Counted from the stretch's first letter, positions 18,322 through 47,803 are shown. The stretch: DNA of 64,000 nt from Candidatus Dojkabacteria bacterium (GCA_040006935.1 JBDTVZ010000002.1:144174-208173), one strand, 5' to 3'. The notes: a model not told the origin generated them from the sequence alone. Translations and numbers: made by a program.

Positions 18322-18330
18322 ATTATTTAG

Positions 18331-19095: not shown

Positions 19096-19140
19096 TGGTA
19101 TGATTACAGAGGGCTGCTACTCCAAAAGATAATCCAACCC

Positions 19141-19232: not shown

Positions 19233-19241
19233 GTCAGAATA

Positions 19242-20741: not shown

Positions 20742-20936
20742 ATTTTAGACTAAATTAGCTAAGTTGAAATCTGTTAAACAGACTGCATTAATTATACAAC
20801 AAAAAAGCTAATTCTTAGTTGATAATTGGAGATTAATTGGGAATTGAAGTTTAAAGGTAGAAAGTTACATGGTTTAAAAGTTGAATGAAAACATTCCAAC
20901 CTTACAACATTTTAACCTTCCCACTAATTAAAATTC

Positions 20937-21392
20937 TTAATTTGCTTCTTTTGTTACTGGAGCAACGTTTATAATCTTATCTTCACTTTCTCTATATATT
21001 AGAGCTTTTGTTGAGAAAATAATCACAGTATCTCCTTCTTGTGCATCTGCATAGAAAGTAGCATTTTGAGATTTAACTTCCTCAAGATTAGCAATAGTCG
21101 CTATTGTTGGACTTTCGTTTGGAACAAGAATAATTTTCTTGATTTTATCTGTTAATGCATTATATTTTGCTGTGTCTTGCGCTGTCTGATCAGTACCTGA
21201 AGTTGATGCAAGTGGTTCCATTCTAGGTTTTATTACAAAAAGATACACACCACCACCTACAATAACTACTATTAAAATTAGTATTATAAATTTATATAGT
21301 AAATCGTTTTTTTTCTCTATTCTCTTCTGTTTAAAGGGATCTTGAAGCGTATTCATAATATTAAATGTTAAAATAATTAATCTGCTAACCAA
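20937..21392 (-). CDS. Small membrane-anchored hypothetical protein. Its start overlaps the stop region of the third giant gene, and it sits between the giant-gene array and secY.
   Basis: It is 151 aa with a single TM (FIILILIVVIVGGGVYLFVI) and a hydrophilic C-terminal domain. There is a 16-nt overlap with 21377..25951. Confidence 0.5.
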   Translation of the reverse strand: MVSRLIILTFNIMNTLQDPFKQKRIEKKNDLLYKFIILILIVVIVGGGVYLFVIKPRMEPLASTSGTDQTAQDTAKYNALTDKIKKIILVPNESPTIATIANLEEVKSQNATFYADAQEGDTVIIFSTKALIYRESEDKIINVAPVTKEAN

Positions 21393-24300
21393 GTATAGCA
21401 GTAGTACTTTCCTATCTCAACAGGTGTTGTGAGGTTAATTTTAAATGAACTAGAACTAATTTCAGATACGTTTATCTTTTCTACAGAACTAAGATCTGAA
21501 CAATCTGAAGTCTTAGTAGGTGCTGTATCAGACTGACCTATGATTCCTACACTTACGAAAGGTTGATATGGATATTGTATAGGAAAACTAATTGTTTTGG
21601 ACAAAAGAGGGTAAGTTCCATCGGATTGCATATAACCCCATCCACTTATTTGGAACTGGTTTGGTTGGTCCACTTGATTATCTTTATCAAAACGTATTCT
21701 AGATATAACCAAACCATTTAAACTTCTCCATTCTTGTGATACAGAATCTCGGAATTCCAAGGTTTTAGAAATATCATTTATTCTAAAACCAATTTCATCA
21801 GTTGTAGATCCAAAAAGGATTTTCCCTTCAGATGAAACTTTTATGTAATTTAATCCATTTTTACTTTCAATATCTTTATTGACTTGTAAATTAGCTCCAT
21901 TTTCATCTACTTGATCAACACCGATACCAACTTTTGTATCAGCTAAACTAAATACATTATCGCCTTTTTGTTCCCATAAAAGTGATTGTGTAATTTGATT
22001 ACTATCCGCCAGATTTGTCCACTCTCCTTCCTTATTTTTAAATTGAACTTTTCCTGCTTCGTTTAATTTAAATCCTGCCTCTCCATTTTCACCAAGATTT
22101 ATTTGTACTTTATTATTTATTCCATCGTTGTTTCTAGTTATCATTACGCTTATGAAAGATATTCCCTCACCAGTATGTGGCTCTTGGGCTATTCCTATAT
22201 TGGTTTCTCCATCTTCAGCTTTTTTACCAACTCCTTCAATATCACTTGCAGTTATTTTATCTCCAATTGAAATATCGCCTTTAACTTTTACGGGAACTTG
22301 CCCCACCATACTCATTAATTTCCAATTAGGATCGTTATTGTTTACATCTTCAACGCTTGTAATATTTCCTACAAAACCAGGCGAAGTACTTATTACTCCA
22401 ACGATTGCTTTATCTCCTTCTTTTGCTTTTAGAATACTTTTAGATTCTGTTTCATCTAACTTAACAATATCTCCCGCTTCAATTGAAGTATCGTTTGTAT
22501 GCATATACTCTGCGTAATCAGCACCTACGCTAAACCATCCTCCTTGTTGACTTGTATATGCTCTACCCGTAGCATCGAATCTAAATAATTTTCCATCTGG
22601 TTGACTTGCCGTTGCTGGACCTGTACCTGTTTGGTTCGCAATATAAAATATATCCTCAGCTTTTGTTTGACCTAAGTCCAAAATATCTATGTCTGTCCTT
22701 GTTGAGGAATATGGTGCAACCTGACCTCCATATGTATAAAATTTACCATTGTATATACCATAAGCTGGCCCTTGACGACCAGTTCCTCCTGCTGGTAAAG
22801 CTTGAATCCAACTAGCTGTTTGTATATTGTAATAATATGATGCATTTAATAAAACTCCCGCTCCTGCATATCCTCCCCATAAATAAACCTTATCCTGATA
22901 TGCAAACAAAGTGGGTCCTGCAACAACACCTGTTGAAGGACCAGCACTCCAAGTAGCAGCCTGGATATCATATATTTCGAAAAGTGCTGAAAACCCTGAG
23001 CCTGGGATTGTCCCTCCAAGAACGTACATTTTACCATTCAATATGGTAGACCCCATTCCATATCTTGCAGTGCCTCCAGTTGTTCCAGTTGTCCATGTAT
23101 TTGCTCCGAAATCAAATATACTCATTGTATTAGTTACTGTAGGACAGGCTCCAGCACTATTACATCCTCCCCATAAGTACCACTTACCATTATAAACAAC
23201 TGATGAAGATCCAGATCGAGCAGTTCCTCCAGTTGTTCCTGCTGACCATGTATTAGTTGCTATATTGTAAATTTCCATTGTATTTAAAATACTTGCGCAT
23301 GCTGCTACATCACATCCTCCCCAAATATAAATTTGGGCATTATACAATGCAGACATATGTTCATAGTGTGTTACGCTGCTACTAGCTCCTGTAGACCAAG
23401 TATTACTTGCAATATTATAAATATACATAGTCTTGTCTCCTCCAGTTGCATCTCCTCCATAAACATAGAATTTACCTTGATATATCTCACCAGTTGGTGC
23501 ATTTAAAGTAGACGTTTGTGTTGCTCCCACAGTCCATGCTCTTGTTGTGTATTGAGTATTCTCATTTGTTAAATAAACTAATCCTAAAGGTTTTCCTGTT
23601 ATAGTCAAGACATTACTAGTATCCAATTTTAAACGCTCCTCTGAACCAACATTAATGCTTAGTACAGTATCTCTGATGCCTAGATCATAAATATCAGTTG
23701 TGCTTAAGATATTACTTCCAGCACTATCCAATCCATCTACTTCAAATATTTTTCCATTATATAAAGCTGCTACCTGAGCGTATCTAGCAGTACCTCCTGC
23801 TGTCCCTGTACTCCATGTGCCTAATGCCAAACTATATATATCTACAGTATTAACTCCTGATGAGGTAAAACCATGTACACTCAACATATTTCCATTACTT
23901 ATAAACAAGGAACCATTTCTTCTTGCTGTACCTCCTGCCGTGCCAGTGCTCCATGTGGCTGTTGGAATATCGTAAATGTCTAAAGTATTTGTTACTGCAG
24001 CAATAAAACCCCCGTAGTTATACATTTTTCCATTGTATATCACCGACGTTTGAGACCTTCTAGCAGTTCCTCCTGTAGTTCCAGTAGTCCAACTATTTGC
24101 TCCTATATCGTAAATATCTACAGAGTTTAAGTTAGTTGAGTTATTAGCAGAACCACCCCATATATAAATCTTTCCATTGTAAATAACAGAACTCGCTTGA
24201 CACCTTGCAGTACCTCCAGATGCGCCCGTACTCCAACTATTATTTGCAACATCGTAAATATCTACTACTGTGGTTGTAGATGTTAAGGCTGAGTTTGTGC

Positions 24301-25951
24301 AGCCAGTAACATAGTACATTTTCCCGTTATAAGTTTGACCTGTATGTGCCAGTCTAGCTGTACCTCCTGCTGTTGCAGTAGCCCAAGTGTTTGTTAATAA
24401 ATCATAAACATTCATTGTATTAACAATGGTTGATAATGCCGTATTTGTCGCACCACCCCAAATGTATAATTTAGAATTGTAAACTAAACCGATAGAGTAC
24501 GCTCTTCCGGTCCCTCCTCCAGCACCTATGCTCCAACTTGCAGCAACATTTGAAGAGAGATTTTTATTAATATTCAATCCTCTAAGTATATTTATATTAT
24601 TATAGCCATAGGCATCTATTTGACTACCTGTGATTGAATTTATACTGAGACCTTGAGAGCTAGTGATATTGCCATTGCCATAATAAGTTCCATTGCTATC
24701 AATCCCTACTCTTAAAGCATTGTTAATAAAGATTTTATCAAATTGCTGAGCAATAGTTGCACCATCACCTCCTATCTTACTGGCGATTTGCTCTACAACG
24801 GTCTGGCCTGTAGTCCAGCTTACTGCCGGAGAAACAGAAAGTTGAGTTGAAGTAGGAACTCCATCAATACGTGCGTAAGTTGTACCATTTACTAAAACTA
24901 AATTACCTACATCAAAATTTGTTGTTGAAGATACTACTAGGTTTTTTGTCGTTGTCCCAGTTCCTGAGGTTGTTGTTGATCCATTGCCCACCGTCAAAAG
25001 ACTTCTAACATCTCCTTTAAAATTACTAAGTCCATCCGCAGTAAGATTTAAAGCAATTGTTAATCCTCCGTCAGTTTTTAAAGTATTAGCAGCAGACCTA
25101 TATAAAGTCGCATCTCCTAATAGTAAACCTCCTGTAGCGCCTGTTTGGCTTAAAGCAAGCTGACCCGCATTATTCAATACAAATTTATCTGTACCCGAAC
25201 TTTGTAATTGAAGAATATTCCCTGAACCTTGTTGATTTACTCTAATTGCACCTGTAGAGCTTGGCGTACTTTGTATTGTGGTTGGGCTCAATTGAACAAA
25301 TCCATCTGTTGATGCACCACTCAAAGTTTGAGCGCTGAAAACCGTTGGGACGCTCATTAACCCAGTACGTGTGAAAGTTTCTATTCCCCCTGGTGGTGAT
25401 GCTAAAGTTGTCCATGCACCACTCGGATCAAAAGTAATTTCTAAAAATAGATCTGTTCTATCAAAATTTACTCCTGTAACGGAATCGGCATCTCCATTAT
25501 CATCAAATAATTGACAAAGAGTAGAAGAAGTAACTGTTGAAGCCCAGGAATGGGTTCCAGATGCAGATGCAACACAAACAGAATTAATTCTTAAGTCGAA
25601 CCTTCCTGCACCTGTGCCTATTTCTACATTTGTAAATAACTCTTCAAATAAAAGATTATTTCCTGCAGTTGCTGTTCCACCGCTTACAACATTCCAAATT
25701 CTAACTCTAAAATCGCAAGTATCTGCTCCAGCCGACACACATGCTGGACTTCCAGTTGCAGGTGCGAGTCCCGTAGTCTTGTTTGTGATTCTACTTTGAA
25801 AGTTAATAGTATTATTTATAGTTGCATGAACCTGATGAGTTGAGCTAAAGATAAACATTATAAAAACCACAGATAACAGACGACAGACGACAGATATTAT
25901 TCTTCTGTGATCTGTCTTCCGTATTCTGTTTTCTATTAATTTATAATTCAT
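21377..25951 (-). CDS. Giant membrane-anchored surface protein, paralogue 3 (1524 aa). It has a conserved N-terminal module, two six-bladed Kelch-like beta-propellers and a conserved C-terminal module.
   Basis: The ORF is uninterrupted. There is an N-terminal TM helix. Twelve blades repeat W(S/T)TGTAGGTAR….YNGK(I/M)Y(I/V)WGG…(L/V)DIYD. A linker FGIRDTVLSINVG lies between the propellers. The C-terminal roughly 450 aa is colinear with the other two paralogues (…KLFRFDATGRAYTSQQGGWFSVGADYAEYMHT…GVISTSPGFVGNITSVED…). Confidence 0.85.
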   Translation of the reverse strand: MNYKLIENRIRKTDHRRIISVVCRLLSVVFIMFIFSSTHQVHATINNTINFQSRITNKTTGLAPATGSPACVSAGADTCDFRVRIWNVVSGGTATAGNNLLFEELFTNVEIGTGAGRFDLRINSVCVASASGTHSWASTVTSSTLCQLFDDNGDADSVTGVNFDRTDLFLEITFDPSGAWTTLASPPGGIETFTRTGLMSVPTVFSAQTLSGASTDGFVQLSPTTIQSTPSSTGAIRVNQQGSGNILQLQSSGTDKFVLNNAGQLALSQTGATGGLLLGDATLYRSAANTLKTDGGLTIALNLTADGLSNFKGDVRSLLTVGNGSTTTSGTGTTTKNLVVSSTTNFDVGNLVLVNGTTYARIDGVPTSTQLSVSPAVSWTTGQTVVEQIASKIGGDGATIAQQFDKIFINNALRVGIDSNGTYYGNGNITSSQGLSINSITGSQIDAYGYNNINILRGLNINKNLSSNVAASWSIGAGGGTGRAYSIGLVYNSKLYIWGGATNTALSTIVNTMNVYDLLTNTWATATAGGTARLAHTGQTYNGKMYYVTGCTNSALTSTTTVVDIYDVANNSWSTGASGGTARCQASSVIYNGKIYIWGGSANNSTNLNSVDIYDIGANSWTTGTTGGTARRSQTSVIYNGKMYNYGGFIAAVTNTLDIYDIPTATWSTGTAGGTARRNGSLFISNGNMLSVHGFTSSGVNTVDIYSLALGTWSTGTAGGTARYAQVAALYNGKIFEVDGLDSAGSNILSTTDIYDLGIRDTVLSINVGSEERLKLDTSNVLTITGKPLGLVYLTNENTQYTTRAWTVGATQTSTLNAPTGEIYQGKFYVYGGDATGGDKTMYIYNIASNTWSTGASSSVTHYEHMSALYNAQIYIWGGCDVAACASILNTMEIYNIATNTWSAGTTGGTARSGSSSVVYNGKWYLWGGCNSAGACPTVTNTMSIFDFGANTWTTGTTGGTARYGMGSTILNGKMYVLGGTIPGSGFSALFEIYDIQAATWSAGPSTGVVAGPTLFAYQDKVYLWGGYAGAGVLLNASYYYNIQTASWIQALPAGGTGRQGPAYGIYNGKFYTYGGQVAPYSSTRTDIDILDLGQTKAEDIFYIANQTGTGPATASQPDGKLFRFDATGRAYTSQQGGWFSVGADYAEYMHTNDTSIEAGDIVKLDETESKSILKAKEGDKAIVGVISTSPGFVGNITSVEDVNNNDPNWKLMSMVGQVPVKVKGDISIGDKITASDIEGVGKKAEDGETNIGIAQEPHTGEGISFISVMITRNNDGINNKVQINLGENGEAGFKLNEAGKVQFKNKEGEWTNLADSNQITQSLLWEQKGDNVFSLADTKVGIGVDQVDENGANLQVNKDIESKNGLNYIKVSSEGKILFGSTTDEIGFRINDISKTLEFRDSVSQEWRSLNGLVISRIRFDKDNQVDQPNQFQISGWGYMQSDGTYPLLSKTISFPIQYPYQPFVSVGIIGQSDTAPTKTSDCSDLSSVEKINVSEISSSSFKINLTTPVEIGKYYCYTWLAD

Positions 25952-25956
25952 AATTT

Positions 25957-28900
25957 CTAATTACCTAGAGCTCTCCAAGTGTAACAGTAATACTTACTCC
26001 CCAAGGAGGGCTGATCGGTTCTTATATTTAAATTAAATTTAGTTGTGTCTATAGAATAAGGTGTTATTGTGACAATAGACTCATCAAATATACAACTACT
26101 CAAATTTGCTGGCTCTGTTGTTGAAGATCCAGAAATATCTGTAATTACAACAGGAATACTTCCATAGTTCTTTCCAAACCCTATTGATTTCACTAAGGAT
26201 GTAGTATTATCTCCTTTAATATATCCCCAACCGCTCACTTGTTCAACGTTTTTAATTTCAGTATTAGACCCATCAGGATTAACTTTAGAATTAGATATAA
26301 CTAATCCAGATAACTTTTTCCATTCTTGAGTTATAGAGTCTTTAAATTCTAAGGAATTATCATTAGAATTTAATCTAAATCCAATATCTGAAGAATTGAA
26401 AGTTATACTTCCCTCGCTTGCAGATATTTTTACATATTTTAAACCATCTTTAATTTCAATATCTCCTGCTATCTGTAACTTACTTCCATCCAGATTCTCT
26501 TCTGGTACTCCAATACTTGTTACTCCATTGTTATTATCATATATATTATCTCCAATTTTTTTCCAAATTACACTAGTATCCACACTAATCTGCTGATCAA
26601 TATTTTTCCAATCTTCTTCTTTATCTTTATATTGCAATTTACCTTCATTGCTTAGTCTGAAACCAGCCTCACCTTCTGTTCCTAAGTTTATTTGAACTTT
26701 ATTATTTATTCCCGAATTATTTCTAGTTATTAATACACTTATTCCTCCTATACTTTCTCCATCAAATGATTCTTGAGCTATTCCAATATTATCTTCTCCC
26801 TCCTCTACTCTCATACCAATCCCTGCCTGGCTACTGATTCCAATTCTATCTCCTACTTTTATAGGACCATTTTCCCTGCTTACTTTCACTGGAACTTGTC
26901 CTACCATGCTTAATAACTTCATATCGGCTCTTTGTCTGTTTATATCTTCCACTGAGGTTATGTTTCCTACAAAACCAGGATCTGTACTTATCACACCTAT
27001 TACCTCATCTCCTTTGCTTGCTTTTGATATACTTTTTCCGTCCGACAAATCTAATTTAACAATATCACCTGCTTGTATATTTGTGTCCGAAGTGTGCATA
27101 TACTCAGCATAGTCAGCTCCAACGCTAAACCAACCTCCCTGAGAACTTGTATAAGCTCTTCCAGTCGCATCAAATCTAAACAATTTAGAATCTCCACCTC
27201 CAACTCCTTGTTGATTTGCAATGTAAAAGATATCTTCTGTTTTTGAGATTCCAAAGTCATAAATATCCATTGTATTAAGTTGTGTTCCACCACCTGTATT
27301 CAGTCCCCCCCATCCATAAAGCTTAGCATTCCACATTATTGTAAATTGACCATACCTCGCAGTACCCCCTGCTGTTCCAACACTCCAAACATTTCTTTCT
27401 ATGTCATAAACATCCATTGCTGTCGATGCTGCAGTTGTAAATCCAGCCCAAGAAATCAATTTCCCATTATATTCGACAAGTTGTCCTAGGTATCTTGCAT
27501 TCCCTCCTGCTGTTCCTGTTGTCCATGAGTTTGTTACCAGATCATAAATATCCACTGTATTTGTTGCGGCTGCAATAAAACCTCCAAAATTATACATTCT
27601 GTTTTTATATAAGACTGCACTATGCCATCTTCTAGCTGTTCCCCCTGCCGTTCCTGTACTCCAGCTATTTGCAACTGGATCATAAATATCTACTGTATTT
27701 ATATTTACAGTACCATTAATTCCTCCCCATATATAAATTTTGGCATTCCAGAGTACAGCAGATGCCCCACCTCTTGCGGTTCCCCCTCCTGTCCCTGTAC
27801 TCCATGTATCTGTTGCTATATCGTAAATATCTACAGCATTAGTTACAGATGAAGATGCTATGTTTAGTGTTCCCATAATAATATATATTTTCCCATCGTA
27901 TATAGTTGCAGATGCAGCCCACCTTCCAGTGCCTCCAGCTGTTCCTGTGCTCCAGGTACTAGTTTTAAGGTCAAAAATATCTAAAGTATTATAATAAGCT
28001 GTACAGCCCGTGGTTGTACAACCTCCCCAAATATACATCTTGTCATTGTACTCTACCGTTACTCCATAGTTTCTAGCTGTTCCTCCCGTTGTTCCTGTTG
28101 TCCATCCAGGAGCAGTATATTGACTTCCTTCTTTTGATATATACTGTAAGCCTAATGATTTTGAAGAGAGAGTTATTACATTATTTTGGTCAATATTTAA
28201 CCTTTGCTGATCGCCTACATTCACTTGCAAAACTGTATCTTTAATTCCAAAGTCATAAATATCCATTGTATTTATTGCTCCTGATGCGTCTCCTCCCCAG
28301 TTATACCACTGGTTATTAAACACAGCACTTGCTGGATGTATTCTCGCCGTACCACCTGCTGTTCCTGTACTCCAACTATCTAATGCAAAATCATAAATAC
28401 TTAATGAATTTAGTGCAGAACCATTAGTTCCTCCCCATCCATACATTTTATTATCAAATACCGTAGCTACATGATCTTGTCTTGCGGCACCTCCAGCTGT
28501 TCCTGTTGCCCATGAATTAGCTGAGAAATCATAAATATCCATTGAATTTACTACACCACCATTATTTCCTGCCCAGACATACATTTTGTCATTATAGACA
28601 ATAGCTGTATGTTGAAACCTTGCAATTCCACCCGTTGTCCCTGTTGTCCATGAATTAGCTGCGAAATCATAAATATCCATTGTGTTTGAAACACTGCCGG
28701 TAGATCCACCCCAGATATACCATTTATTATTATAAACAACTCCACTAGCTGCATCTTTCGCAGTACCTCCTGTTGCCCCTGTACTCCAGGTACCAAGTTT
28801 TAAATCATAAATATCCACAGTATTTATTCTCGTTCCTCCACTATTAAAACCACCCCATGCATACATTTTATCGTTAAAAACTGTTGCTACATGGTATCTT

Positions 28901-30537
28901 CTAGCAGTACCTCCTGCTGTTCCTGTTGTCCAAATTTTTGATGAGAAGTTATAAATATCTAAAGAATTGATCACGGATCCTGTAGAACCTCCCCATACAT
29001 AAAGATTTCCGTTATAGGTAACTGCTGTATGTGAGTGCCTTGCTACACCGCCAGTTGTTCCTGTACTCCAGCTTCCAGCTACATTAGAATACTCTGCTTT
29101 ATTTATAATTAAACCTTTGGTTGTATTTAAACCTACAGTGGCCGAACTCCCCATATTTAAACTATTTGTTCCAGTATCAATAGCAAAAGGATTTGTTTTT
29201 CCTCCACCAATAGATTGGTCTCCATAGGTGGTAGAATTTGTACTAGAACCTACTCGCAATCCATTGTTTGTAAACATTCTGTCGTAAAGTAAAGCTACAT
29301 TTGTTCCATTTCCTCCTATGTCTGGAGCTGTATATTCAACTACTGTTTGACCATTAGACCAGCTAACCGCTGGGTTCACTGTGAGTGCTGTACTACTTTC
29401 TACTTTAGTTATAATTGCATAAGTAGAACCATTTATAAGAACTAGATTGCCTACATCAAAATTAGTTGTACTTGAAACTACTAGAGTAGTTACACTGCTA
29501 CCCGTTCCAGTTGCAGTTGTGCTTCCATTTGAAACAGTCGTAATTGCTTTTAGGTTTCCTTTAAATTCTGAATAACCTAGCACTGAGAATTCTGTACTAT
29601 TAGTCCCATCTACAATTAAGTTATCATCAGTTTTTAATACATTAGTTGTTGAATTATATAAATTCACATCTCCACCAATTACTAAACCTCCTGTAGCCCC
29701 AGTTTGAGCAAGAGCCAATTGGCCTGCATTACTCAAAACGAATTTATCGGAACCCGCTTGTTGTAATTGAATAACGTTGCCACTTCCTGTTTGATTAACT
29801 CTGATTGCTCCTGAAGAGCTGGAAGTGCTTTGAACTGCACTAGGATTAAGTTGAACAAATCCTGTTTCATCGAGTCCATTAATTGTTTTAGTTGCATAAG
29901 CTGAAGGAACGGAAGTTAAATTAGTCCTTGTAAATATTTCTATTCCTCCTGGTGGAGAAGCTAGAGTAGTCCATGCACCGCTAGGATCAAAAGTTACTTC
30001 CAAATATAGATCGGTCCTTGCAAAATCAATCCCTGTAGTTGTATCGGTATCTGCATTATCATCAAATAAATTGCAAACAGTTGCAGATGCACCTGTAGTC
30101 CCCCACTGATGTGTTGAGCTGGAAGTAGCTCCACACACTGAGTTTATAGATAAAGTAAAGATTCCATTTCCATCACCTAATTCAACATTATTAAATAATT
30201 CTTCATACATTAAGTTGTTACCCGCAGTTGCTGTTCCTCCACTTACTAAGTTCCAAATCCTCACTCTAAAATCACAAGTATCTGCACCAGAAACTACACA
30301 AGTAGGTGGGGTACCAGAAGTAATATTTAAAAGTGTTGATTTCACAATCATCTTTGTTTGGAAATTAATTACATTATTAATTGCCGCATGGATCTGATTT
30401 GTTGAGATTAAGTTTAGAGTTATGATTGTTAACAACACAAAGATCATAGATAACAGATGACAGATGACAGACCTTATCAATCTATTATCTGCAATCTGTG
30501 ACTTATTTTTTATTCTTTCATTTCTTAATTCTTTCAT
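25957..30537 (-). CDS. Giant membrane-anchored surface protein, paralogue 2 (1526 aa), with the same architecture as 21377..25951.
   Basis: The ORF is uninterrupted and lies 5 nt from its neighbour. It has the same N-terminal (CDFRVRIWN..SGGTATAGNNL) and C-terminal (GWFSVGADYAEYMHT) modules and 12 Kelch-like blades. Confidence 0.85.
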   Translation of the reverse strand: MKELRNERIKNKSQIADNRLIRSVICHLLSMIFVLLTIITLNLISTNQIHAAINNVINFQTKMIVKSTLLNITSGTPPTCVVSGADTCDFRVRIWNLVSGGTATAGNNLMYEELFNNVELGDGNGIFTLSINSVCGATSSSTHQWGTTGASATVCNLFDDNADTDTTTGIDFARTDLYLEVTFDPSGAWTTLASPPGGIEIFTRTNLTSVPSAYATKTINGLDETGFVQLNPSAVQSTSSSSGAIRVNQTGSGNVIQLQQAGSDKFVLSNAGQLALAQTGATGGLVIGGDVNLYNSTTNVLKTDDNLIVDGTNSTEFSVLGYSEFKGNLKAITTVSNGSTTATGTGSSVTTLVVSSTTNFDVGNLVLINGSTYAIITKVESSTALTVNPAVSWSNGQTVVEYTAPDIGGNGTNVALLYDRMFTNNGLRVGSSTNSTTYGDQSIGGGKTNPFAIDTGTNSLNMGSSATVGLNTTKGLIINKAEYSNVAGSWSTGTTGGVARHSHTAVTYNGNLYVWGGSTGSVINSLDIYNFSSKIWTTGTAGGTARRYHVATVFNDKMYAWGGFNSGGTRINTVDIYDLKLGTWSTGATGGTAKDAASGVVYNNKWYIWGGSTGSVSNTMDIYDFAANSWTTGTTGGIARFQHTAIVYNDKMYVWAGNNGGVVNSMDIYDFSANSWATGTAGGAARQDHVATVFDNKMYGWGGTNGSALNSLSIYDFALDSWSTGTAGGTARIHPASAVFNNQWYNWGGDASGAINTMDIYDFGIKDTVLQVNVGDQQRLNIDQNNVITLSSKSLGLQYISKEGSQYTAPGWTTGTTGGTARNYGVTVEYNDKMYIWGGCTTTGCTAYYNTLDIFDLKTSTWSTGTAGGTGRWAASATIYDGKIYIIMGTLNIASSSVTNAVDIYDIATDTWSTGTGGGTARGGASAVLWNAKIYIWGGINGTVNINTVDIYDPVANSWSTGTAGGTARRWHSAVLYKNRMYNFGGFIAAATNTVDIYDLVTNSWTTGTAGGNARYLGQLVEYNGKLISWAGFTTAASTAMDVYDIERNVWSVGTAGGTARYGQFTIMWNAKLYGWGGLNTGGGTQLNTMDIYDFGISKTEDIFYIANQQGVGGGDSKLFRFDATGRAYTSSQGGWFSVGADYAEYMHTSDTNIQAGDIVKLDLSDGKSISKASKGDEVIGVISTDPGFVGNITSVEDINRQRADMKLLSMVGQVPVKVSRENGPIKVGDRIGISSQAGIGMRVEEGEDNIGIAQESFDGESIGGISVLITRNNSGINNKVQINLGTEGEAGFRLSNEGKLQYKDKEEDWKNIDQQISVDTSVIWKKIGDNIYDNNNGVTSIGVPEENLDGSKLQIAGDIEIKDGLKYVKISASEGSITFNSSDIGFRLNSNDNSLEFKDSITQEWKKLSGLVISNSKVNPDGSNTEIKNVEQVSGWGYIKGDNTTSLVKSIGFGKNYGSIPVVITDISGSSTTEPANLSSCIFDESIVTITPYSIDTTKFNLNIRTDQPSLGSKYYCYTWRALGN

Positions 30538-30544
30538 TTCTTAA
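30513..30544. repeat. Tandem 16-nt duplication (ttctttcatttcttaa x2) spanning the stop of giant gene 1 and the start of giant gene 2.
   Basis: Seen directly. On the minus strand it reads TAAGAAATGAAAGAA twice: the first copy carries stop plus ATG, and the second is in-frame coding (LRNER). Confidence 0.6.
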
Positions 30545-33500
30545 TTTGCTATAGCTATCCAGTTAAAACAGATGTATTTATTTGGAATATCTGCTTCATT
30601 TGTTGTAATAGACATATCAAACTTATTATCTGACTTAATATTTACTTTACTTACAATATTTTGATCCAACACGCTATCACATTGAGTCGGATTATTTGGT
30701 TCATTTTCTGAATAACCAATAATATTAGAAAGTACTGCAATCTTTTCTCTAACTGTACCTGGAATAGTTATTTCTTTAGACAAGCTTGTTGTTGAGCCAT
30801 CTCCTTTTAGAAAACCCCATCCACTTATCTGATAACTATTTTGTACTTGCAGCACATTTTCATTATTTACTTGCATCCTACTTATAACCATTCCAGATAA
30901 ACTTCTCCAATCATTTGCACCAGCATCACTGTATTCAATTCCTCCCGTAGTTTCGTTTAGTCTTATACTCAAAGGACTGGTTGATTCTCCTATTTTAATT
31001 ACACCATTAGCAGTTATTTTCACAAACTTTAAACCATCCATTACATCTATTCCTTGAGATATCTGGAGTTTACTTCCACTTAAATTTTCTTCATCTACAC
31101 CAATACTTGTTACCCCCGAACTATTATTAAAAATATTGTCCCCTATTTTTTCCCAAATCATACTATTATCGACCTCAACACTTTGTGCGATATCTTTCCA
31201 GTTTCCTGATGTATCCTTAAATTGTAAATTTCCAGAATTATTTAATCTAAATCCTGCTTCCCCGTTTTCTCCAAGGCTAATTTGAACTTTATTATTAATT
31301 CCCTCATTATTTCTAGTTATTAACACACTTATTTTTCCTATAATATTTCCTGAATAATTTTCTTGGGCTAAACCGATATTGCTATCTCCAGGGTCCGCTT
31401 TCATTCCCACTCCAGGTACGGATGAAGATGTTATTGGATCTCCAATCTTGATTTCTCCATTTTCAGTACTTACTTTCACAGGTACTTGTCCTACCATGCT
31501 AAGTAATTTCATATCAGTTCGATTATTATTAATATCTTCTATATTCGTTATGTTTCCAACAAATCCTGGATCAGTACTAATCACACCTATAACATCATTG
31601 TCATTTGCTTTAGAAGTTTTTATAAGGCTTTTTGCATCGACACTATCTAGTTTTACAATATCTCCTGGTTCAATAGTTGCATCTTTTACATGCATATATT
31701 CTGCATAGTCAGCACCTACGCTAAACCAACCTCCTTGTTTGCTTGTATACGCTCTTCCCGCAGCATCAAATCTAAATAGTTTTCCATTATCTGGTCCACC
31801 ATTTTGTTGATTAGTTATATAAAATACATCTTCTGATTTAGAAGCCCCTATATCAAAAATATCTAATGTATTCAGAACTGTAGTTCCTGCAGAATTTAAT
31901 CCACTCCAATTGTAAATCTTTCCACTATAAACTGTTGATACATGCTCATAACGGGCTGTTCCTCCTGCTAGGCCTATACTCCAAACTGCTCTCTCTGTAT
32001 CAAATATCTCCACAGTATTTACTGCTGCACTTGTAAATCCATAGACAGCATAGAATTTACCATTGTAGGGTACAAATCCATGTAATTCTCTAACAGTAGA
32101 TGCTGAAGTTCCAACTGCCCATGTATTTGTTTGGAAATCATAAATATCAACAGTGTTAGTTACTGCAGCGATAAAACCTCCAAAATTATACATTTTCCCA
32201 TTATAAAGAACTGCTGTTTGAAACCTTCTAGCAGTTCCTCCTGCTGCTCCTGTACTCCAGCTATTTGCATTTATGTCATAGATATCTAAAGAGTTAAGAT
32301 TTGATCCTGTATAACCAGCCCAAATATATATTTTCCCATTATATAAGACAGAAGAAGCAGCGCAACGACCCGTACCTCCAGAGGTTCCTGTACTCCAACT
32401 ATCTGTAACTATGTCATATATATCAACTACAGTTGTGTTTGCTGTTAACAAATTGTTTGTACAACCCGTTACAAAGTAAATTTTCCCATTATAAACCTGT
32501 GCTTGGTGAAAATCCCTTGCTGTTCCCCCTGCGGTTCCTGTTGTCCATGTATTTGTTAGGAAATCATAAATATCCATTGTATTCAATTTAGTTGTTAAAG
32601 CTGAACTGGAAGATCCTCCCCATAGATACCATTTGTTGTTATATTGGGCTCCTGCTGCTCCAGTTCTAGCTGTTCCTCCTGTAGCACCTGTAGTCCAAGC
32701 TTGTGAAGTATATTGTGCCGCCTCTTTTAATGGATAAACTAAGCCAAGAGCCTGCCCTGTTACTGTTAAAATATTATTTGTATCCAATTTTAGTTTTTCT
32801 TGGCTTCCTACATTTACTTGAAGAACAGTACTGTTATCGCCTAAATCATAAATATCCATTGTATTTATGTGGGAACCAGTATTTCCTGCCCAATTGTAAA
32901 TTTTCCCATCGTATAATACAGCAGAATGTTGACTCCTTGCTGTCCCTCCCGTAACGCCTGTTGTCCAAGCATCTGTAGCAAAAGAGTAAATATCTACTGT
33001 GTTTATAAGCGATCCTGTTGTTCCTGCCCAACTATATATTTTCCCACCATAAACAGCTGAAGTATGTAAAGCTCTAGCAGTTCCTCCTGCTGTTCCTGTA
33101 CTCCAGGTATCTGTAGCAATATTATATATATCTAATGTATTTATTGCTGTTCCTCCTGAATTTAAGCCAGCCCAATTATAAATTTTCACATTATATAAAT
33201 TTGATGTACTTTGATATCTAGCCGTACCTCCTGCTGTTCCTGTTGTCCAACTATTTGCTACAAAATCATAAATATCTAATGTATTTATTGCTGTTCCTCC
33301 TGAGTTCAATCCTCCCCAGCTATACATCTTTCCACTGTAAACTATTGCTGAATGCTGACTTCTAGCAGTACCTCCTGCTGTTCCAGTTGTCCATGCATCT
33401 GTTGCAATATCATAAATGTCTACTGTATTTAAAGCTGTTCCTCCAGAGTTTAACCCTCCCCAGCTATAAATTTTTCCATTGTATACAACCGAAGTATGCT

Positions 33501-36489
33501 GCTGTCTTGCAGTTCCCCCTGCTGTTCCAGTAGACCATGTGTTAGTTGCAATATCGTAAATATCTAAAGTATTTATTACAGAACCTGTTGTCCCACCCCA
33601 ACTATATATTTTTCCATTATATAAAATGGAAGTGTGCCTAGACCTAGCAGTTCCTCCTGCTTTACCAGTAGACCAAGAAGCTGTTACATTTACTGCATCA
33701 GTTGTATTGATTATTAATCCGTTAGTTGTAGTGATATTTAACTGATCTCCAGTAGAAGTTATTGTTGATCCTTCAATTCTCAGTCCTCTTGGCGCAACGA
33801 TATTTCTATCTCCAAAGCTAGTGCCATTAGCATCCCCTCCTGCTCTTAAATAATTATAGATATTTGCTGAATCGAATTGTTGATTTAGATTTGCTGTTTG
33901 TCCATCTCCACCTACAGTTGGAGCTGTATACTCTACTACTGTTTGACCATTGGACCAAGAAAGAGCTGGAGTTACTGTCATTTGAGTTGCTGAGTCTATG
34001 CTATCTATTCTTGCATAGGTCGTTCCATTAAGAAATACTAGATTCCCAATGTCAAAATTAGTTGTTGAGGCCACAACAAGGTTTCTAGTTGATGAACCTG
34101 TTCCCGTTGCGGTTGTTGAACCATTTGCTATTGTAACTAATGACCTCATATTTCCTGCGAAGTTAGAAAGACCATTAAATGTACTATCCAATGCTATTTC
34201 TAAAGAATAATTTGAAGTTAGAACCCCACTGGCACTACGATAAATAAGTCCGCCGCCGATTGAAATACCACCACTAACCGTCTGGGTGAATTTAACAAGA
34301 AACGAATCGTTTGAACCTGCCGTAGATTTAACATCTGTCCCTGAGGTAAAGTCAAAGTCCAGGTTAGAACTTTGAAATGCTCCTACAGCATAGATATCGG
34401 TTCCATTAGCATAGATACCTGCAGGATTATCCAGTCCAGCAGCTCCTATTGAAACAGTCCAAGCATAGTTACCGTTAGGATAATATTTTGAAAAATATAC
34501 ATCATTACTACCTACGCTTACCTTGTTATCAAAACCCGTTGAAGTACCATCAAAATCTGTAGCGGCTCCTACACCAGAAGCACCAGTACCTATATATAAA
34601 CTACCGCCTGAATCAATACTTAAAGAATTTGTAGAGTCTGACGCTTCACTTCCAAAAGTCCTCGCCCAGCCATAGCTTGCATCGGAATTGTACTTCACTA
34701 AAAATCCATCTGCACTTCCACCTATTACTGATTTTGTATCTGTTCCTGCTGTGCCATCAAAATCTGTTGTATTTCCAAATGATCCTGCAGCGTAAACTGA
34801 AGTAGTGCTAGCAACTAAAGCATTGACTTGGTCCCCAACTCCACCAGTAGTATGCCCAGCAAAAACTCTTGTCCATGCGTAGACACCAGCTGTTGTATAT
34901 TTTGAGATATATGCACTGTTGGCAGTTCCACTACTAAAACTTGATTGACTATCTGTTCCTGCAGTAGTGTCAAAATCTATACTTGCACCTACAAACCCAC
35001 CACCAAAATAAAAGAACCCATCTGTTGTTACTGCAATACCTTTCCCAATATCTGTATTTCCTGAACCTCCAAATGCTCCTCCAAATAGGTACGCACCAGT
35101 TGTATCATATTTAGCAAAATAAGCATCATCCCCACTACTTGTATGATTATCTGTTCCTGCACCAGGATTAAAATCCACGGTTGTACCATTATATCTACCA
35201 GTAATGTAAGAGTTACCACTTGAGTCTACAGCAATTGCAGAACACTGTTCTGTGGTTGCCGCTGTTGAACCCCCAAAATGTTTTCCCCATTGATAAGTTC
35301 CACTGGAATTATATTTAATAATGAAATTGTCGGTTCCTCCTGCACTTACATGACTATCTGTACCTGCGTTTCCATTAAAATCTTGTGTTCCACTAAAAGC
35401 TCCACAGTAATATACGTCTGTATCAGTTGCGGCAACACTCAATACTTGTTGTGTACCACTAGTTGTTGATATTACTCTTGACCATTGATAAGCACCACTT
35501 GCGTTGTATTTAGTAAGATATAAACCAGTTCCGGAACTTGTAAAAGGATCTGTACCTCCTGTTCCATCTAAGTCGATACTCGTACCAGTAAAAGTTCCAA
35601 CCTGATACACTCCAGTTCCATCTGGTGATACATATACAGATTGACCTATATCTGTGCCCGATCCCCCTACTACTCTAGAGAAACCGTACCCTGGAAGTGA
35701 ATCAGATAAACCTAATTGACCAGTATTATTTACAGTAAGTACATTGGCCCCTGCAGTTTGTAATTGCAGAAGAGTTCCTGTTCCTGTCTGATTAACTCTA
35801 ATTGCTCCATTTGTGCTTGTTGTATTTTGAATTGCCGATGGATTTAACTGTACAAAGTCTGATGAAGAGAATCCATTTAAGGTTTGAGCCACAAACGCGC
35901 TTGGGGCTGTTCGCAAATTAATTCTTCCAAATGTTTCAGCATTTCCCGAAGACCCTGTTAAACTTGTCCATGTACCATCTACATCCCATGTTAATTCTAA
36001 CCAAAGATCAGATCTTGCAAAGTTAATACCCGTTGTTGAATCCGCATCTCCATTATCATCAAAGAGATTACATACTGTTGCAGATGCACCTGTAGTACCC
36101 CATTGATGAGTAGCGCTTGTAGTAGCCCCACAAACAGAATTTATTGTTAGATTTAAAATTCCATTAGTATCTCCCAGTTCTATATTTGTGAATAATTCTT
36201 CATACATCAAATTATTTCCGGCTGTGGCGGTTCCACCAGTTTGTTGATTCCAGATTCTGATTCTGAAATCACAAGTATCTGCTGACCCAGTAATTACACA
36301 AGCTGGCATTGCGTTCTGTGGATTTATCCCACTTGATTTCAATGTTAATTTTGTTTGGAAATTTATAGTGTTTTTTATGGCGGCGCTAACTTTAAAATTT
36401 CCCACAAAAAAAGTGATAAATATAAAAATGAAAGCTATAGCCGTAGAAGTCTTTATAGTATTGAGTTTTAGACAGTTAGTCCACCTCAT
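30541..36489 (-). CDS. Giant membrane-anchored surface protein, paralogue 1 (1982 aa). It has the same N- and C-terminal modules and Kelch-like propellers, plus an additional block of about 450 aa of SBBP-type beta-propeller repeats.
   Basis: The ORF is uninterrupted. The extra region between the N-module and the first Kelch propeller contains about 8 repeats of the type GG…D.G..IAVD(S/T)(S/D)GN.Y..G.F.G…DFD…AGTD, which is SBBP-like. It is the first gene after the rplO terminator. Confidence 0.85.
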   Translation of the reverse strand: MRWTNCLKLNTIKTSTAIAFIFIFITFFVGNFKVSAAIKNTINFQTKLTLKSSGINPQNAMPACVITGSADTCDFRIRIWNQQTGGTATAGNNLMYEELFTNIELGDTNGILNLTINSVCGATTSATHQWGTTGASATVCNLFDDNGDADSTTGINFARSDLWLELTWDVDGTWTSLTGSSGNAETFGRINLRTAPSAFVAQTLNGFSSSDFVQLNPSAIQNTTSTNGAIRVNQTGTGTLLQLQTAGANVLTVNNTGQLGLSDSLPGYGFSRVVGGSGTDIGQSVYVSPDGTGVYQVGTFTGTSIDLDGTGGTDPFTSSGTGLYLTKYNASGAYQWSRVISTTSGTQQVLSVAATDTDVYYCGAFSGTQDFNGNAGTDSHVSAGGTDNFIIKYNSSGTYQWGKHFGGSTAATTEQCSAIAVDSSGNSYITGRYNGTTVDFNPGAGTDNHTSSGDDAYFAKYDTTGAYLFGGAFGGSGNTDIGKGIAVTTDGFFYFGGGFVGASIDFDTTAGTDSQSSFSSGTANSAYISKYTTAGVYAWTRVFAGHTTGGVGDQVNALVASTTSVYAAGSFGNTTDFDGTAGTDTKSVIGGSADGFLVKYNSDASYGWARTFGSEASDSTNSLSIDSGGSLYIGTGASGVGAATDFDGTSTGFDNKVSVGSNDVYFSKYYPNGNYAWTVSIGAAGLDNPAGIYANGTDIYAVGAFQSSNLDFDFTSGTDVKSTAGSNDSFLVKFTQTVSGGISIGGGLIYRSASGVLTSNYSLEIALDSTFNGLSNFAGNMRSLVTIANGSTTATGTGSSTRNLVVASTTNFDIGNLVFLNGTTYARIDSIDSATQMTVTPALSWSNGQTVVEYTAPTVGGDGQTANLNQQFDSANIYNYLRAGGDANGTSFGDRNIVAPRGLRIEGSTITSTGDQLNITTTNGLIINTTDAVNVTASWSTGKAGGTARSRHTSILYNGKIYSWGGTTGSVINTLDIYDIATNTWSTGTAGGTARQQHTSVVYNGKIYSWGGLNSGGTALNTVDIYDIATDAWTTGTAGGTARSQHSAIVYSGKMYSWGGLNSGGTAINTLDIYDFVANSWTTGTAGGTARYQSTSNLYNVKIYNWAGLNSGGTAINTLDIYNIATDTWSTGTAGGTARALHTSAVYGGKIYSWAGTTGSLINTVDIYSFATDAWTTGVTGGTARSQHSAVLYDGKIYNWAGNTGSHINTMDIYDLGDNSTVLQVNVGSQEKLKLDTNNILTVTGQALGLVYPLKEAAQYTSQAWTTGATGGTARTGAAGAQYNNKWYLWGGSSSSALTTKLNTMDIYDFLTNTWTTGTAGGTARDFHQAQVYNGKIYFVTGCTNNLLTANTTVVDIYDIVTDSWSTGTSGGTGRCAASSVLYNGKIYIWAGYTGSNLNSLDIYDINANSWSTGAAGGTARRFQTAVLYNGKMYNFGGFIAAVTNTVDIYDFQTNTWAVGTSASTVRELHGFVPYNGKFYAVYGFTSAAVNTVEIFDTERAVWSIGLAGGTARYEHVSTVYSGKIYNWSGLNSAGTTVLNTLDIFDIGASKSEDVFYITNQQNGGPDNGKLFRFDAAGRAYTSKQGGWFSVGADYAEYMHVKDATIEPGDIVKLDSVDAKSLIKTSKANDNDVIGVISTDPGFVGNITNIEDINNNRTDMKLLSMVGQVPVKVSTENGEIKIGDPITSSSVPGVGMKADPGDSNIGLAQENYSGNIIGKISVLITRNNEGINNKVQISLGENGEAGFRLNNSGNLQFKDTSGNWKDIAQSVEVDNSMIWEKIGDNIFNNSSGVTSIGVDEENLSGSKLQISQGIDVMDGLKFVKITANGVIKIGESTSPLSIRLNETTGGIEYSDAGANDWRSLSGMVISRMQVNNENVLQVQNSYQISGWGFLKGDGSTTSLSKEITIPGTVREKIAVLSNIIGYSENEPNNPTQCDSVLDQNIVSKVNIKSDNKFDMSITTNEADIPNKYICFNWIAIAN

Positions 36490-36603
36490 TAAATTTTAGG
36501 TAAAAACATTAAGTGCACAATACTCAGTTTATCAGAAGAATAAGGGGATGTGAAGTTTTAGGACTAAATTTTATTACACTTTTTTAGAGACAAGAAATTG
36601 GAT

Positions 36604-36632
36604 AAAAAAAGTCTCTTTTGGAGACTTTTAAA
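36604..36632 (-). terminator. Intrinsic terminator downstream of rplO (minus strand): stem AGTCTC/GAGACT, loop CAAAA, then TTTTTT.
   Basis: The minus-strand reading is aaaagtctccaaaagagactttttt. It sits between rplO (ending at 36650) and the giant-gene start (36489). Confidence 0.6.
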
Positions 36633-36649
36633 ATCGAAGGATTATTATT

Positions 36650-37138
36650 TTACTCTACAGTTCCTCCTGCTTTTTCTATTGCAGATTTTGCAGTTTTTGA
36701 AGTTGCAACTCCTTTTAGATTTATTTTTATATCAATTTCTTTATCAAAAAGAACTTTTACCACTAATTCTTTATGAAATTTGGGACTTATTAAACCATAT
36801 TCAACTAAATTTACAATACTAACTTCTGGATTTTTTGATTCCTTGACTGCATCTGCAAGTAAGCTTAATTTTACAGGAGAATTTCTTTGCATAGACATGA
36901 AAGTTCCTCTACCAGTAAAACCTTTTCCTTTAGATGGAGTTCCTTTGTAAATTGGTAATCTTCTGTTGATTGGATTTTGTCCCCCTTCAAATCCTGGTCT
37001 TGGTTGCTTGTGACCACCTCTTGCAGTCTGACCTTTTCCACCTCTTCCACTTGTATGTCCACCTACCCCACTACCTATCCCTCTTCCGATTTTCTTTTTA
37101 GCTTGTATTGTTTTTGGTGAAGGTAAATTATTTAACAT
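36650..37138 (-). CDS. rplO: 50S ribosomal protein L15.
   Basis: Glycine-rich N-terminus GRGIGSGVGGHTSGRGGKGQTARGG, and its position after S5 and L18. Confidence 0.85.
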   Translation of the reverse strand: MLNNLPSPKTIQAKKKIGRGIGSGVGGHTSGRGGKGQTARGGHKQPRPGFEGGQNPINRRLPIYKGTPSKGKGFTGRGTFMSMQRNSPVKLSLLADAVKESKNPEVSIVNLVEYGLISPKFHKELVVKVLFDKEIDIKINLKGVATSKTAKSAIEKAGGTVE

Positions 37139-37164
37139 CTTTAAAATGAATCTTTAAATTAAAT

Positions 37165-37734
37165 TTATAGTCTTGTTTGTCTTAATAAACCAAGTGCCTG
37201 TACTGTTGCATAAGCATTTGTAATCTTATTGTCTGCGCCCATTATTTTTCCTAGGACGTCATTTATCCCTGCTACTTCAGCTACAAGTCTCATTGAAGAT
37301 CCAGCAATAATTCCAGTTCCTGGAGAAGCTGGTTTTAGTAGCACTCTAGCAGACTTGAATTTATGTAAAATCTCATGAGGAATTGTATTACCCTTTAATT
37401 TGATAAAGATCATGCTTTTTTTTGCTTTTAGAACTGCTTTTTCTTGTGCACTTCTAACATCATCTCCTTTCCCTAATCCTAAACCAACCTTTCCTTTCTT
37501 ATCTCCAACAACAACAAATACACTAATCTTCATTCTCCTTCCACCTTTATACATTTTTGTTACTCTTCTAACATCAATAATTTTAGTTTCGAAAGCATCT
37601 TTATCTTCTCGTTTCTTTCCATTCTCATCTCTTCTCTTTGGCCTTAGCTTTGTTTTATTTTTTTCAAATCTTCTAGGCTCAGTTTCTTGAGTGTTTGTTT
37701 GTGGTTTTGTTTCTTCTACTTTTGTATCTGACAT
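37165..37734 (-). CDS. rpsE: 30S ribosomal protein S5, with a lysine-rich N-terminal extension.
   Basis: The dsRBD and S5 C-domain motifs VVVGDKKGKVGLGLGKGDDVRSAQEKA and GTGIIAG are present. Confidence 0.85.
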   Translation of the reverse strand: MSDTKVEETKPQTNTQETEPRRFEKNKTKLRPKRRDENGKKREDKDAFETKIIDVRRVTKMYKGGRRMKISVFVVVGDKKGKVGLGLGKGDDVRSAQEKAVLKAKKSMIFIKLKGNTIPHEILHKFKSARVLLKPASPGTGIIAGSSMRLVAEVAGINDVLGKIMGADNKITNAYATVQALGLLRQTRL

Positions 37735-47260: not shown

Positions 47261-47336
47261 ATCTATTATGTAATATATAAAATTAGTATTTCTTTTAGAC
47301 TAAAATCCGATTATAAATTATAACGACACATATTGC

Positions 47337-47801: not shown

Positions 47802-47803
47802 CG

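Follow-up and report, generated by a model that had tools for sequence, protein, structure and literature searches.

To our knowledge, how ultrasmall bacteria of the candidate phyla radiation (CPR, or Patescibacteria) recognize and hold their hosts is largely unknown outside Saccharibacteria, and we know of no cultured representative of the Dojkabacteria. Here, we analyze a 64,000-nt stretch of a Candidatus Dojkabacteria genome (GCA_040006935.1, JBDTVZ010000002.1:144174-208173; hereafter, the window) in which three tandem genes for giant proteins (G1, G2, and G3) and a gene for one small membrane protein lie between the ribosomal protein gene rplO and secY. Giant surface proteins have been proposed before to attach CPR bacteria to their hosts; in Vampirococcus lugosii, this proposal concerns the ten longest membrane proteins (PMC8080830). 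Like those, the Dojkabacteria giants are very large proteins of adhesion type, predicted to be exported, from an ultrasmall presumed episymbiont, and the same role, to recognize a host and fix the cell to it, can be proposed for them. However, the V. lugosii proteins are built from WD40, PKD, integrin, and fibronectin domains, whereas the Dojkabacteria giants combine an N-terminal module (N-module) with Kelch propellers, a domain resembling the C-terminal part of phage phi29 gp12, and an H-type-lectin-like tip. They also differ in that both ends of the protein follow a fixed frame, a small partner gene is conserved beside them, and the site of insertion is defined.

The other systems that invite comparison are phage fibers, in which autochaperone domains are well known. 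The C-terminal domain of phi29 gp12 (Peptidase_G2, PF11962; PDB 3GQH and 3SUC) is cleaved off following folding of the trimer (PMC3357383, PMC4690869), and the mature protein, gp12*, ends at residue 691 (PMC6542822). Fibers and endosialidases with a Peptidase_S74 domain (K1F, T5 pb1) follow the same logic, a self-chaperoning trimerization domain at the C terminus of a long receptor-binding protein; the giants bear a gp12-type (beta-stranded) domain instead, and no S74 match was found in the window proteins. The Pseudomonas phage tailspikes LKA1 gp49 and phi297 gp61 have a discoidin-like C-terminal domain at the distal end of the fiber, as the giants have their tip.

We read the cassette, at a probability of about 0.6, as a self-contained set of surface-fiber genes that would encode trimeric, phage-spike-like adhesion fibers together with a small membrane protein. 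A first-pass annotation of the window had already described a paralogous, exported family of surface or adhesin type between rplO and secY, a description that the comparisons below support and extend to related genomes. What appears to be new is the Dojkabacteria-wide family frame, the presence of a gp12-type domain in a Sec-exported cellular protein, the partner gene, and the insertion between rplO and secY. Literature searches on surface, giant, intramolecular chaperone, and Kelch proteins of Dojkabacteria or Patescibacteria returned no description of this giant family.

The evidence for a gp12-like core comes mainly from relatives of the window proteins and from a structural model. Taken alone, the window C-module gave nothing significant in Pfam, NCBIfam, or PHROGs and nothing in a single-sequence PDB search. 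Among 18 C-module homologs, however, 5 match PF11962 (best E, 9.4e-12), and the closest homolog (P0001) has a precomputed match to the same family. A profile of the core matches the phi29 pre-neck appendage protein in PDB entries 3gqh (E 3.6e-4) and 6qz9 (E 1.5e-3), and the alignment opens at gp12 D692, with which the deposited chain of the C-terminal fragment (3gqh) begins. A Foldseek search with the C-module model found 3suc at an E-value of 5.5e-5, which gives the core the fold of the gp12 C-terminal fragment, and the model has a pLDDT (predicted local distance difference test score) of 85 to 96 in this region. The motif D-Y-A-E-Y aligns with gp12 D692-E695, its E being invariant and its D nearly so in 14 to 18 family sequences; written as D-[YF]-A-E-Y, the motif falls on the opening residues (D692 onward) of the fragment that gp12 releases. 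In gp12 and the giants alike, the domain lies C-terminal to a large receptor-binding part, but gp12 is a virion component with a beta-helix, whereas the giants are cellular, predicted to be Sec exported, and carry Kelch propellers upstream. In the window proteins, the likeness to gp12 stays below the Pfam threshold for PF11962.

The tip is placed by similar means. Two C-module homologs match PF09458 (H_lectin) directly (E 2e-5), and Foldseek supports an H-type-lectin-like tip at probability 1.0 and a template-modeling score of 0.62. The tip has the beta-sandwich fold of H-type lectins, a group that includes Helix pomatia agglutinin, SLL-2, and the discoidin C-domain. The motif ...YYCYTW is conserved in the C-terminal domain of all three paralogs. 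The first-pass statement that the family corresponds to no characterized system therefore needs dividing: it no longer holds for the C-module, homologous to the phi29 gp12 autochaperone and ending in an H-type-lectin-like tip, but it stands for the N-module and the small partner, which are without known relatives.

At the other end, the giants begin, by inspection, with ...KVSA/AIKN, ...QIHA/AINN, and ...QVHA/TINN (the slash marking the expected cleavage site), each sequence showing the positively charged n-region, hydrophobic h-region of 10 to 18 residues, and AxA site of a type I signal peptide. In some 34 family members, an unconserved hydrophobic leader ends in AxA just where a conserved module (A-I-N-N-T-I-N-F-Q-x-K) starts. 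This placement of AxA exactly before a conserved mature N terminus points to a cleaved Sec signal peptide, and the giants are probably exported through Sec with removal of the leader; what had been taken for a transmembrane anchor is better read in this way.

These leaders bear on the idea that the cassette is what remains, after domestication or decay, of the receptor-binding module of a prophage or tailocin, its fiber genes accompanied by an assembly or holin-like small protein. It is true that the best structural matches of the C-terminal domains are phage tailspikes, head fibers, and decoration proteins, and PHROGs gave weak hints of a tail fiber (E 0.066) and, for the small protein, an Rz-like spanin (E 0.046). 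Those E-values are far above significance, however, and the Sec signal peptides with which the three giants and the approximately 34 inspected members begin are not expected of virion proteins. Neither the 64-kb window nor the sequence flanking related loci contains other phage genes, the codon composition is native, and the array is orthologous and syntenic across species, all of which makes such an origin very improbable.

The N-module itself is a disulfide-containing, N-terminal beta-sandwich that defines the family. It has 400 cluster representatives, lies nearly always at about residues 35 to 260 of proteins of 1000 to 3300 aa, directly after the AxA signal-peptide site, and all of its named members are from Dojkabacteria/WS6. 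No relatives of it are known, and the isolated module found no significant match in Pfam, NCBIfam, or PHROGs. The gp12-like core recurs in 36 of 81 long N-module members, with a tail of about 230 to 270 aa, and an S74 domain in 4 of 25 other family members. The middles vary (Peptidase_S74, Laminin_G_3, F5/8 type C, Kelch, SBBP, and DUF2341), and the family thus keeps both termini as a fixed frame, between which passenger domains, most of them carbohydrate binding, can be exchanged.

Two observations on this family stand apart. Tandem giants are also found in distant family loci, on contigs L034 (9821..20462; 1903 aa, then more than 1621 aa) and L035 (3064..19843; 2106 aa, then 3340 aa), and tandem arrays may be a general habit of the N-module family (L numbers denote contigs of related genomes that were compared with the window). 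Within G1, the end of the N-module (aa 216-256, ~35722..35844; ...GAIRVNQTG.G..LQLQ..G....N.GQL) weakly resembles aa 1723-1762, the segment that follows the gp12-like core (~31204..31323; ...NNKVQISLGENGEAGFRLNNSGNLQF), with hmmsearch domain E-values of 0.2 to 0.6; a beta-strand repeat may recur in the fiber shaft.

The middle of each giant is dominated by Kelch repeats. Pfam Kelch matches in all three have E-values of 1e-44 to 1e-84 (PF24681, 195 to 281 bits against a cutoff of 50; PF01344, 149 to 187 bits against a cutoff of 20.1), and 12 blades (W-x-x-G...GGTAR) can be counted per giant, arranged 6 + 6 with a spacer, which bears out the two six-bladed propellers described in the first pass. 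The second propeller of G3 is the most divergent (37% identity to the propellers of the other giants). The insert of G1 has a marginal match to SBBP repeats (PF06739; 23.8 bits against a cutoff of 20.5, in three stretches; E 4.2e-5 on the isolated insert), and the G1 linker domain, searched alone, gave nothing significant in Pfam, NCBIfam, or PHROGs.

Propellers would also suit secreted carbohydrate-active or sugar-converting enzymes (mutarotase/NanM-like, galactose-oxidase-like Kelch proteins, or tailspike-like depolymerases) that would act on glycans of the host or the environment and so serve nutrient scavenging, on which CPR bacteria rely. There is weak similarity to the cyclically permuted mutarotase/NanM propeller (TIGR03548, E 2e-19 but far below cutoff; PF24996), and phi29 gp12 and many of the tailspikes that match the tip domain are enzymes. 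Yet no enzyme family is matched at its curated threshold, and neither a beta-helix nor a catalytic domain was recognized in the giants. Their 12 near-canonical Kelch blades are free of inserted catalytic modules, and elsewhere in the family the middle is exchanged for lectin or discoidin domains, not hydrolases. An enzymatic role of this kind seems improbable to us.

The modules of G1, G2, and G3 are conserved to different degrees. Identity among the three is 74 to 81% in the short stalk before the core, 62 to 68% in the gp12-like core, and 56 to 66% in the N-module, and it falls to 37 to 56% in the Kelch propellers and 37 to 43% in the lectin-like tip. As far as sequence can tell, these values describe a frame for assembly that has been conserved and, mounted on it, binding modules that have diversified.

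The fiber reading can be put as a mechanism. From N to C terminus, each giant has a putative signal peptide, the N-module, a variable and presumably ligand-binding middle, a short, highly conserved stalk, the gp12-like domain, a fibrous segment, and the lectin-like tip. The N-module would form the cell-proximal attachment end, possibly docked on the small membrane protein, and the gp12-like domain would nucleate trimerization of the exported chains, by analogy with phage tailspikes, with autocleavage possible at GA/DYAEY. The resulting fibers would project carbohydrate-binding propellers and lectin tips from the cell, perhaps with a separate specificity for each of the three giants, and would thereby attach it to host cells or to surfaces. 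The basis for this scheme is the analogy with phi29 gp12 and other tailspikes that have C-terminal intramolecular chaperones (PMC3357383, PMC4690869). If the giants are attachment fibers, their propellers and tips would be testable candidates for host specificity. With the gp12-like domain, a maturation mechanism characterized to date in phage tailspikes would have a counterpart in cells. A bolder version, which we offer as tentative and rather doubtful, is a Dojkabacteria fiber system of phage-tailspike ancestry, trimerized and autoprocessed in the gp12 manner, docked on the partner through the N-module, and fitted with interchangeable lectin tips, in which the paralogs set host range; if that were true, an uncultured phylum would have a host-range determinant that could be read from sequence.

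Several points weigh against reading the giants as fibers of this type. The window C-module does not match PF11962 even at E ≤ 10, and no window protein matches H_lectin PF09458, the tips sharing the fold of H-type lectins without a sequence-level Pfam match; both assignments draw on homologs, a profile, and a predicted structure. The mean pLDDT of the C-module model is just 67.5; it places two domains with confidence and leaves the segment between them unmodeled. At P1 of the putative cleavage site, the giants have Ala (GA/DYAEY), where gp12 has Ser (S691/D692-F-A-E695-Y). Nor is the core at the extreme C terminus, since in all three giants it ends approximately 255 residues earlier, the remainder including the lectin-like domain, and its fold is shared with trimeric capsid decoration proteins that do not cleave. 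On the latter two grounds (nonterminal position and a fold found in noncleaving proteins), cleavage is uncertain. We know of no Kelch propellers within trimeric fibers, the giants show no recognizable motif for anchorage in the cell wall or membrane, and one distant homolog of the small protein (L023) is located elsewhere, not beside a giant.

The small partner is 100% identical to NCBI protein P0037 (139 aa). The N terminus of all its homologs, and of the NCBI annotation, is MNxLQDPFK, at ATG 21356 in the window. The 151-aa frame called in the first pass (TTG start; 20937..21392), which overlapped the stop codon of the last giant, is most probably an over-extension; the 139-aa protein leaves a 20-nt spacer and no overlap. 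It consists of a short basic N terminus, one transmembrane segment, and a conserved ectodomain of about 80 aa with the motif ...PTIATI...FY..A..GD...ALIYR...KIINVAP, and searches of Pfam and PDB found no relative, only transmembrane-segment noise. Distant homologs (29 to 45% identical) lie directly downstream of other giants, in L035 after a 3340-aa protein with an N-module and a gp12-like core and in L025 and L026 after a protein of approximately 1634 aa with a gp12-like core. Because the small protein recurs after giants in distant loci, the cassette comprises the giants plus this partner, whose role may be docking, anchoring, or assembly.

A giant secreted protein followed by a small gene, a pairing that recurs in distant lineages, together with an extreme C-terminal ~100 aa that is the most divergent part, also calls to mind polymorphic toxins or contact-dependent inhibition, in which the giants would carry a toxin at the C terminus for delivery and the small gene downstream would supply immunity. 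Such systems have a variable C-terminal toxin and a co-varying immunity gene after each, and the cassette does not. The three paralogs and their orthologs keep one H-type-lectin-like C-terminal fold with its ...YYCYTW motif, no toxin domain was detected in the giants, and a single small gene accompanies all three. Between species, the small protein is 73 to 77% identical compared with about 50% for the giants, and it is a membrane protein with an external domain, the opposite of a fast-evolving immunity protein. We consider this explanation highly improbable.

The position of the cassette is unusual. The canonical spc operon runs ...rpsE-rpmD-rplO-secY-adk-map..., and as in that operon, the window has the canonical order from rpsJ to rplO, with secY as the next conserved gene downstream. 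Unlike in the canonical operon, rplO and secY are split here by 15.7 kb of nonribosomal genes with their own terminator and promoter. Giants occupy the same place, between rplO and the partner plus secY, in at least four related genomes (L001, L002/L029, L021/L037, L027/L022, and L030). Two species-level relatives (L001 and L002; secY 85 to 86% identical) show giant, small protein, secY, recO, and pheT in succession, and another contig of the L002 assembly (L029) ends with rplO followed by the N terminus of a G1-like giant. The L021/L037 locus, a 40.6-kb Logan contig, has at least three giants (a partial one of at least 563 aa, then 1959 and 1497 aa), after which come the small protein, secY, recO, and pheT. 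In a more distant genome (rplO 69% and secY 73% identical), one contig (L027) joins rplO to a G1-like giant and a second (L022) joins the C terminus of a giant to the small protein and secY, and a JGI contig (L030) carries S5-L15 and then a giant. The secY gene of L022 (1295..2998) is called at 567 aa, with an N-terminal extension of approximately 70 aa that has a weak PLDc_N match; the gene call may have taken a wrong start or fused in a small membrane reading frame from upstream.

One relative (L028; rplO 65% and secY 57% identical) has the order rplO-secY-recO-pheT with a spacer of only 129 nt, so that secY directly follows rplO in one transcription unit, as it does not in the window; neither giants nor the small protein are present at this junction. 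With the junction occupied in the relatives and empty in L028, the cassette is a conserved insertion in one Dojkabacteria subclade, placed in an ancestral rplO-secY junction, and it provides a datable synteny marker for that subclade. The first-pass annotation had noted that finding the giants always at unrelated loci in relatives would undo its reading; instead, at least four relatives share the rplO-secY position.

The empty junction also bears on a structural role in the envelope (S-layer, sheath, or wall fibrils), in which the giants would serve to build up or steady the cell surface, not to attach it specifically, and the lectin-like domains would bind the wall polymers of the cell itself. 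Predicted export, great size, and a composition rich in Gly, Thr, Ser, and Ala speak for such a role, as do a frame kept across a whole phylum-level lineage and a three-gene array that is stable between species; the gp12-like fold is, moreover, common to capsid "cement" or decoration proteins, trimers bound to a surface lattice. Absence of the cassette from an otherwise identical locus would be unexpected of an essential envelope component, though family members might sit elsewhere in the L028 genome. Divergence is greatest in the tips and propellers, as in receptor-binding proteins, and lectin-type middles are swapped across the family. A structural role is, in our judgment, unlikely, and we continue to prefer adhesion fibers.

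Signals around the cassette indicate that it is an independent transcription unit, with a predicted promoter downstream of the rplO terminator, and that secY has its own predicted promoter (Table 1). The hairpin and T-run reported in the first pass directly after rplO is plainly visible, although it was absent from the output of a consensus terminator scan. The window, L027, L029, and L030 each have a hairpin at this position, with at least seven T residues behind it; since the stems differ in sequence, what is conserved of this terminator is its structure. In the interval 36490..36600, which had been singled out for promoter prediction, a promoter scan yielded a promoter-like site with an extended -10 element, and a block TTCTGATAnACT...TGCAC that includes this element, about 25 to 55 nt upstream of the ATG of the first giant, is kept in the window, L027, L029, and L030. 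Upstream of secY, the block TTTTGTTGTATAATT...GTCTG..CAGATTT...TTAGCTAATTTAGTyTAAAAT, with a small hairpin, is kept in the four closest genomes (window, L001, L002, and L021). The gaps between the giants, only 3 and 5 nt as first reported, make it most likely that the giants are cotranscribed.

The conserved terminator, the extended -10 promoter, and the TATAAT element before secY argue against the earlier suggestion that the location couples expression or export of the giants to the ribosomal and secY core. With a terminator and promoters of its own, the site beside the ribosomal genes would be a tolerated insertion site, not a means of regulatory coupling or a regulatory innovation, and the break in synteny looks functionally neutral.

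The three giants are 47 to 49% identical in pairwise protein comparisons over essentially their full lengths, as befits the paralogs they had been taken for, and DNA repeats within the cassette are just 60 to 79% identical. Duplication or collapse in assembly is very unlikely at such identities, and the array is real. What might speak for an artifact, either a mis-join or the duplicated collapse of one gene, is that related short-read assemblies break in the cassette (L001, L002, L022, L027, L029, and L030 all end inside giants) and that contig L002 begins with an odd fusion of N-module and C-terminal tail. On the other hand, the window sits on a 299,293-nt contig, the independent 40.6-kb contig from another sample has orthologs of the giants, at least three of them, ahead of the partner gene and secY, and the rplO-to-giant and giant-to-partner-to-secY junctions are each seen independently in several genomes. 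An artifact, raised as a concern in the first pass, is thus extremely improbable. The L002 fusion frame (12..677) joins the N-module (about aa 102-259 of G1) straight to the post-core C-terminal tail and stops early; either a giant has been shortened by deletion or become a pseudogene here, or the contig end is chimeric.

Orthology was examined by comparing the window giants with the L037 genes at the same array position. G1 and the first L037 gene share 62% identity over the C-terminal 430 aa and 53% over the last 100 aa; the corresponding values are 64 and 61% for G2 and the second gene and 63 and 61% for G3 and the third. Pairs at different array positions reach just 48 to 57% and 29 to 40%. 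Given this position-wise orthology, the three paralogs are older than the species split, and each has retained its own tip. The second L037 gene has an SBBP insert and G2 is without one, so domain gain or loss does occur. The first-pass term "variable," in the sense of copy-number variation, does not fit the one other array that can be counted, which has at least three position-wise orthologous genes. A lower count of two giants in the relative L021 was ruled out, as the start of that contig holds a third, partial giant, and copy-number variation as a sign of phase- or antigen-variable genes was ruled out by the position-wise orthologous arrays.

Overall GC content is higher in the giants (0.36 to 0.40) than the ~0.32 around them. 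GC content at third codon positions (0.19 to 0.21) equals that of neighboring genes, and a foreign origin was rejected on this ground; the excess sits in codon position 2, because the proteins are rich in Gly, Thr, Ala, and Ser. There is no sign of a recent foreign origin of the giants.

The layout of the locus is given in Table 1. The open reading frame (ORF) list reproduced exactly the three uninterrupted giant frames of the first pass, and its identification of rplO and secY was confirmed by curated NCBIfam models. The rplO product is 100% identical to a protein of a Candidatus Dojkabacteria metagenome-assembled genome at NCBI, on a 299-kb contig.

Table 1. Features of the rplO-secY region. 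Coordinates refer to the 64,000-nt window; genes are on the minus strand unless stated otherwise.
Feature	Residues	Window coordinates	Strand	Basis or remark
rplO (L15), final gene of the ribosomal protein operon		36650..37138	-	TIGR01071, 78.8 bits
Terminator-like hairpin AAAAGTCTC-CAAAA-GAGACTTTT, then T7 run, directly after rplO		36604..36629	-	RNAfold -11.6 kcal/mol
Promoter-like site of the giant operon: TTCACA, 17-nt spacer, TG-n-TAAACT (extended -10)		36526..36554	-	Promoter scan
G1	1982 aa	30541..36489	-	ORF list
G1 signal peptide	aa 1-36		-	Inspection
G1 N-module	aa 37-263	35701..36381	-	
G1 SBBP-repeat insert (~510 aa)	aa 264-772		-	Absent from G2 and G3
G1 linker domain	aa 773-938		-	
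G1 Kelch propeller 1	aa 939-1222		-	
G1 Kelch propeller 2	aa 1265-1549		-	
G1 gp12-autochaperone-like core	aa 1593-1727	31309..31713	-	Then fibrous tail
G1 H-type-lectin-like tip	aa 1886-1982	30544..30834	-	
G2	1526 aa	25957..30537	-	ORF list; ortholog, 1959-aa gene of L037
G2 gp12-like core	~aa 1129-1271	26725..27153	-	
G3	1524 aa	21377..25951	-	ORF list; ortholog, 1497-aa gene of L037
G3 gp12-like core	~aa 1132-1272	22136..22558	-	
Small bitopic membrane protein (partner)	139 aa, from ATG 21356	20937..21356	-	Homolog starts
TATAAT -10-like element ~50 nt upstream of secY, then small hairpin		20791..20796	-	
secY		19242..20741	-	TIGR00967, 325 bits
recO		18331..19095	-	RecO match; downstream of secY
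pheT		16294..18321	-	PheT match; after recO

Upstream, BLASTP against Pfam-labeled genes of a relative gave the order tuf-S10-L3-L4-L23-L2-S19-L22-S3-L16-S17-L14-L24-L5-S14-S8-L6-L18-S5-L15, in agreement with the first-pass order except for L29, which was unmatched at the threshold used. No rpmD (L30) lies between rpsE and rplO, where the gap is just 26 nt (37138..37165), another departure from the canonical spc operon; L30 loss has been reported in CPR bacteria and would fit this absence. Downstream, secY is followed by recO-pheT in place of adk-map-infA. The order secY-recO-pheT (16294..20741 in the window; also in L028, L021, L022, and L002) replaces adk-map-infA-rpmJ and the alpha operon clade-wide, the cassette-less genome included, so the ribosomal super-operon was already truncated after secY.

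Five more window ORFs of 410 to 845 aa (56053..58590, 2735..4594, 62004..63287, 11332..12564, and 14474..15754) have no Pfam match at E ≤ 0.001, and the N-module and gp12-like core are absent from all five. At the far end of the ribosomal operon, tuf is not preceded by rpsL-rpsG-fusA (region 47261..49751). A VanY-type D-Ala-D-Ala carboxypeptidase gene lies upstream of tuf (47804..48862), and a plus-strand ORF of 149 aa (48909..49358) matches no more of the SufBD core domain than its C-terminal half and may be a gene fragment. Beyond it, a homolog of the 23S rRNA intervening-sequence protein (49398..49751) adjoins a tRNA-Leu gene (49963..50046).

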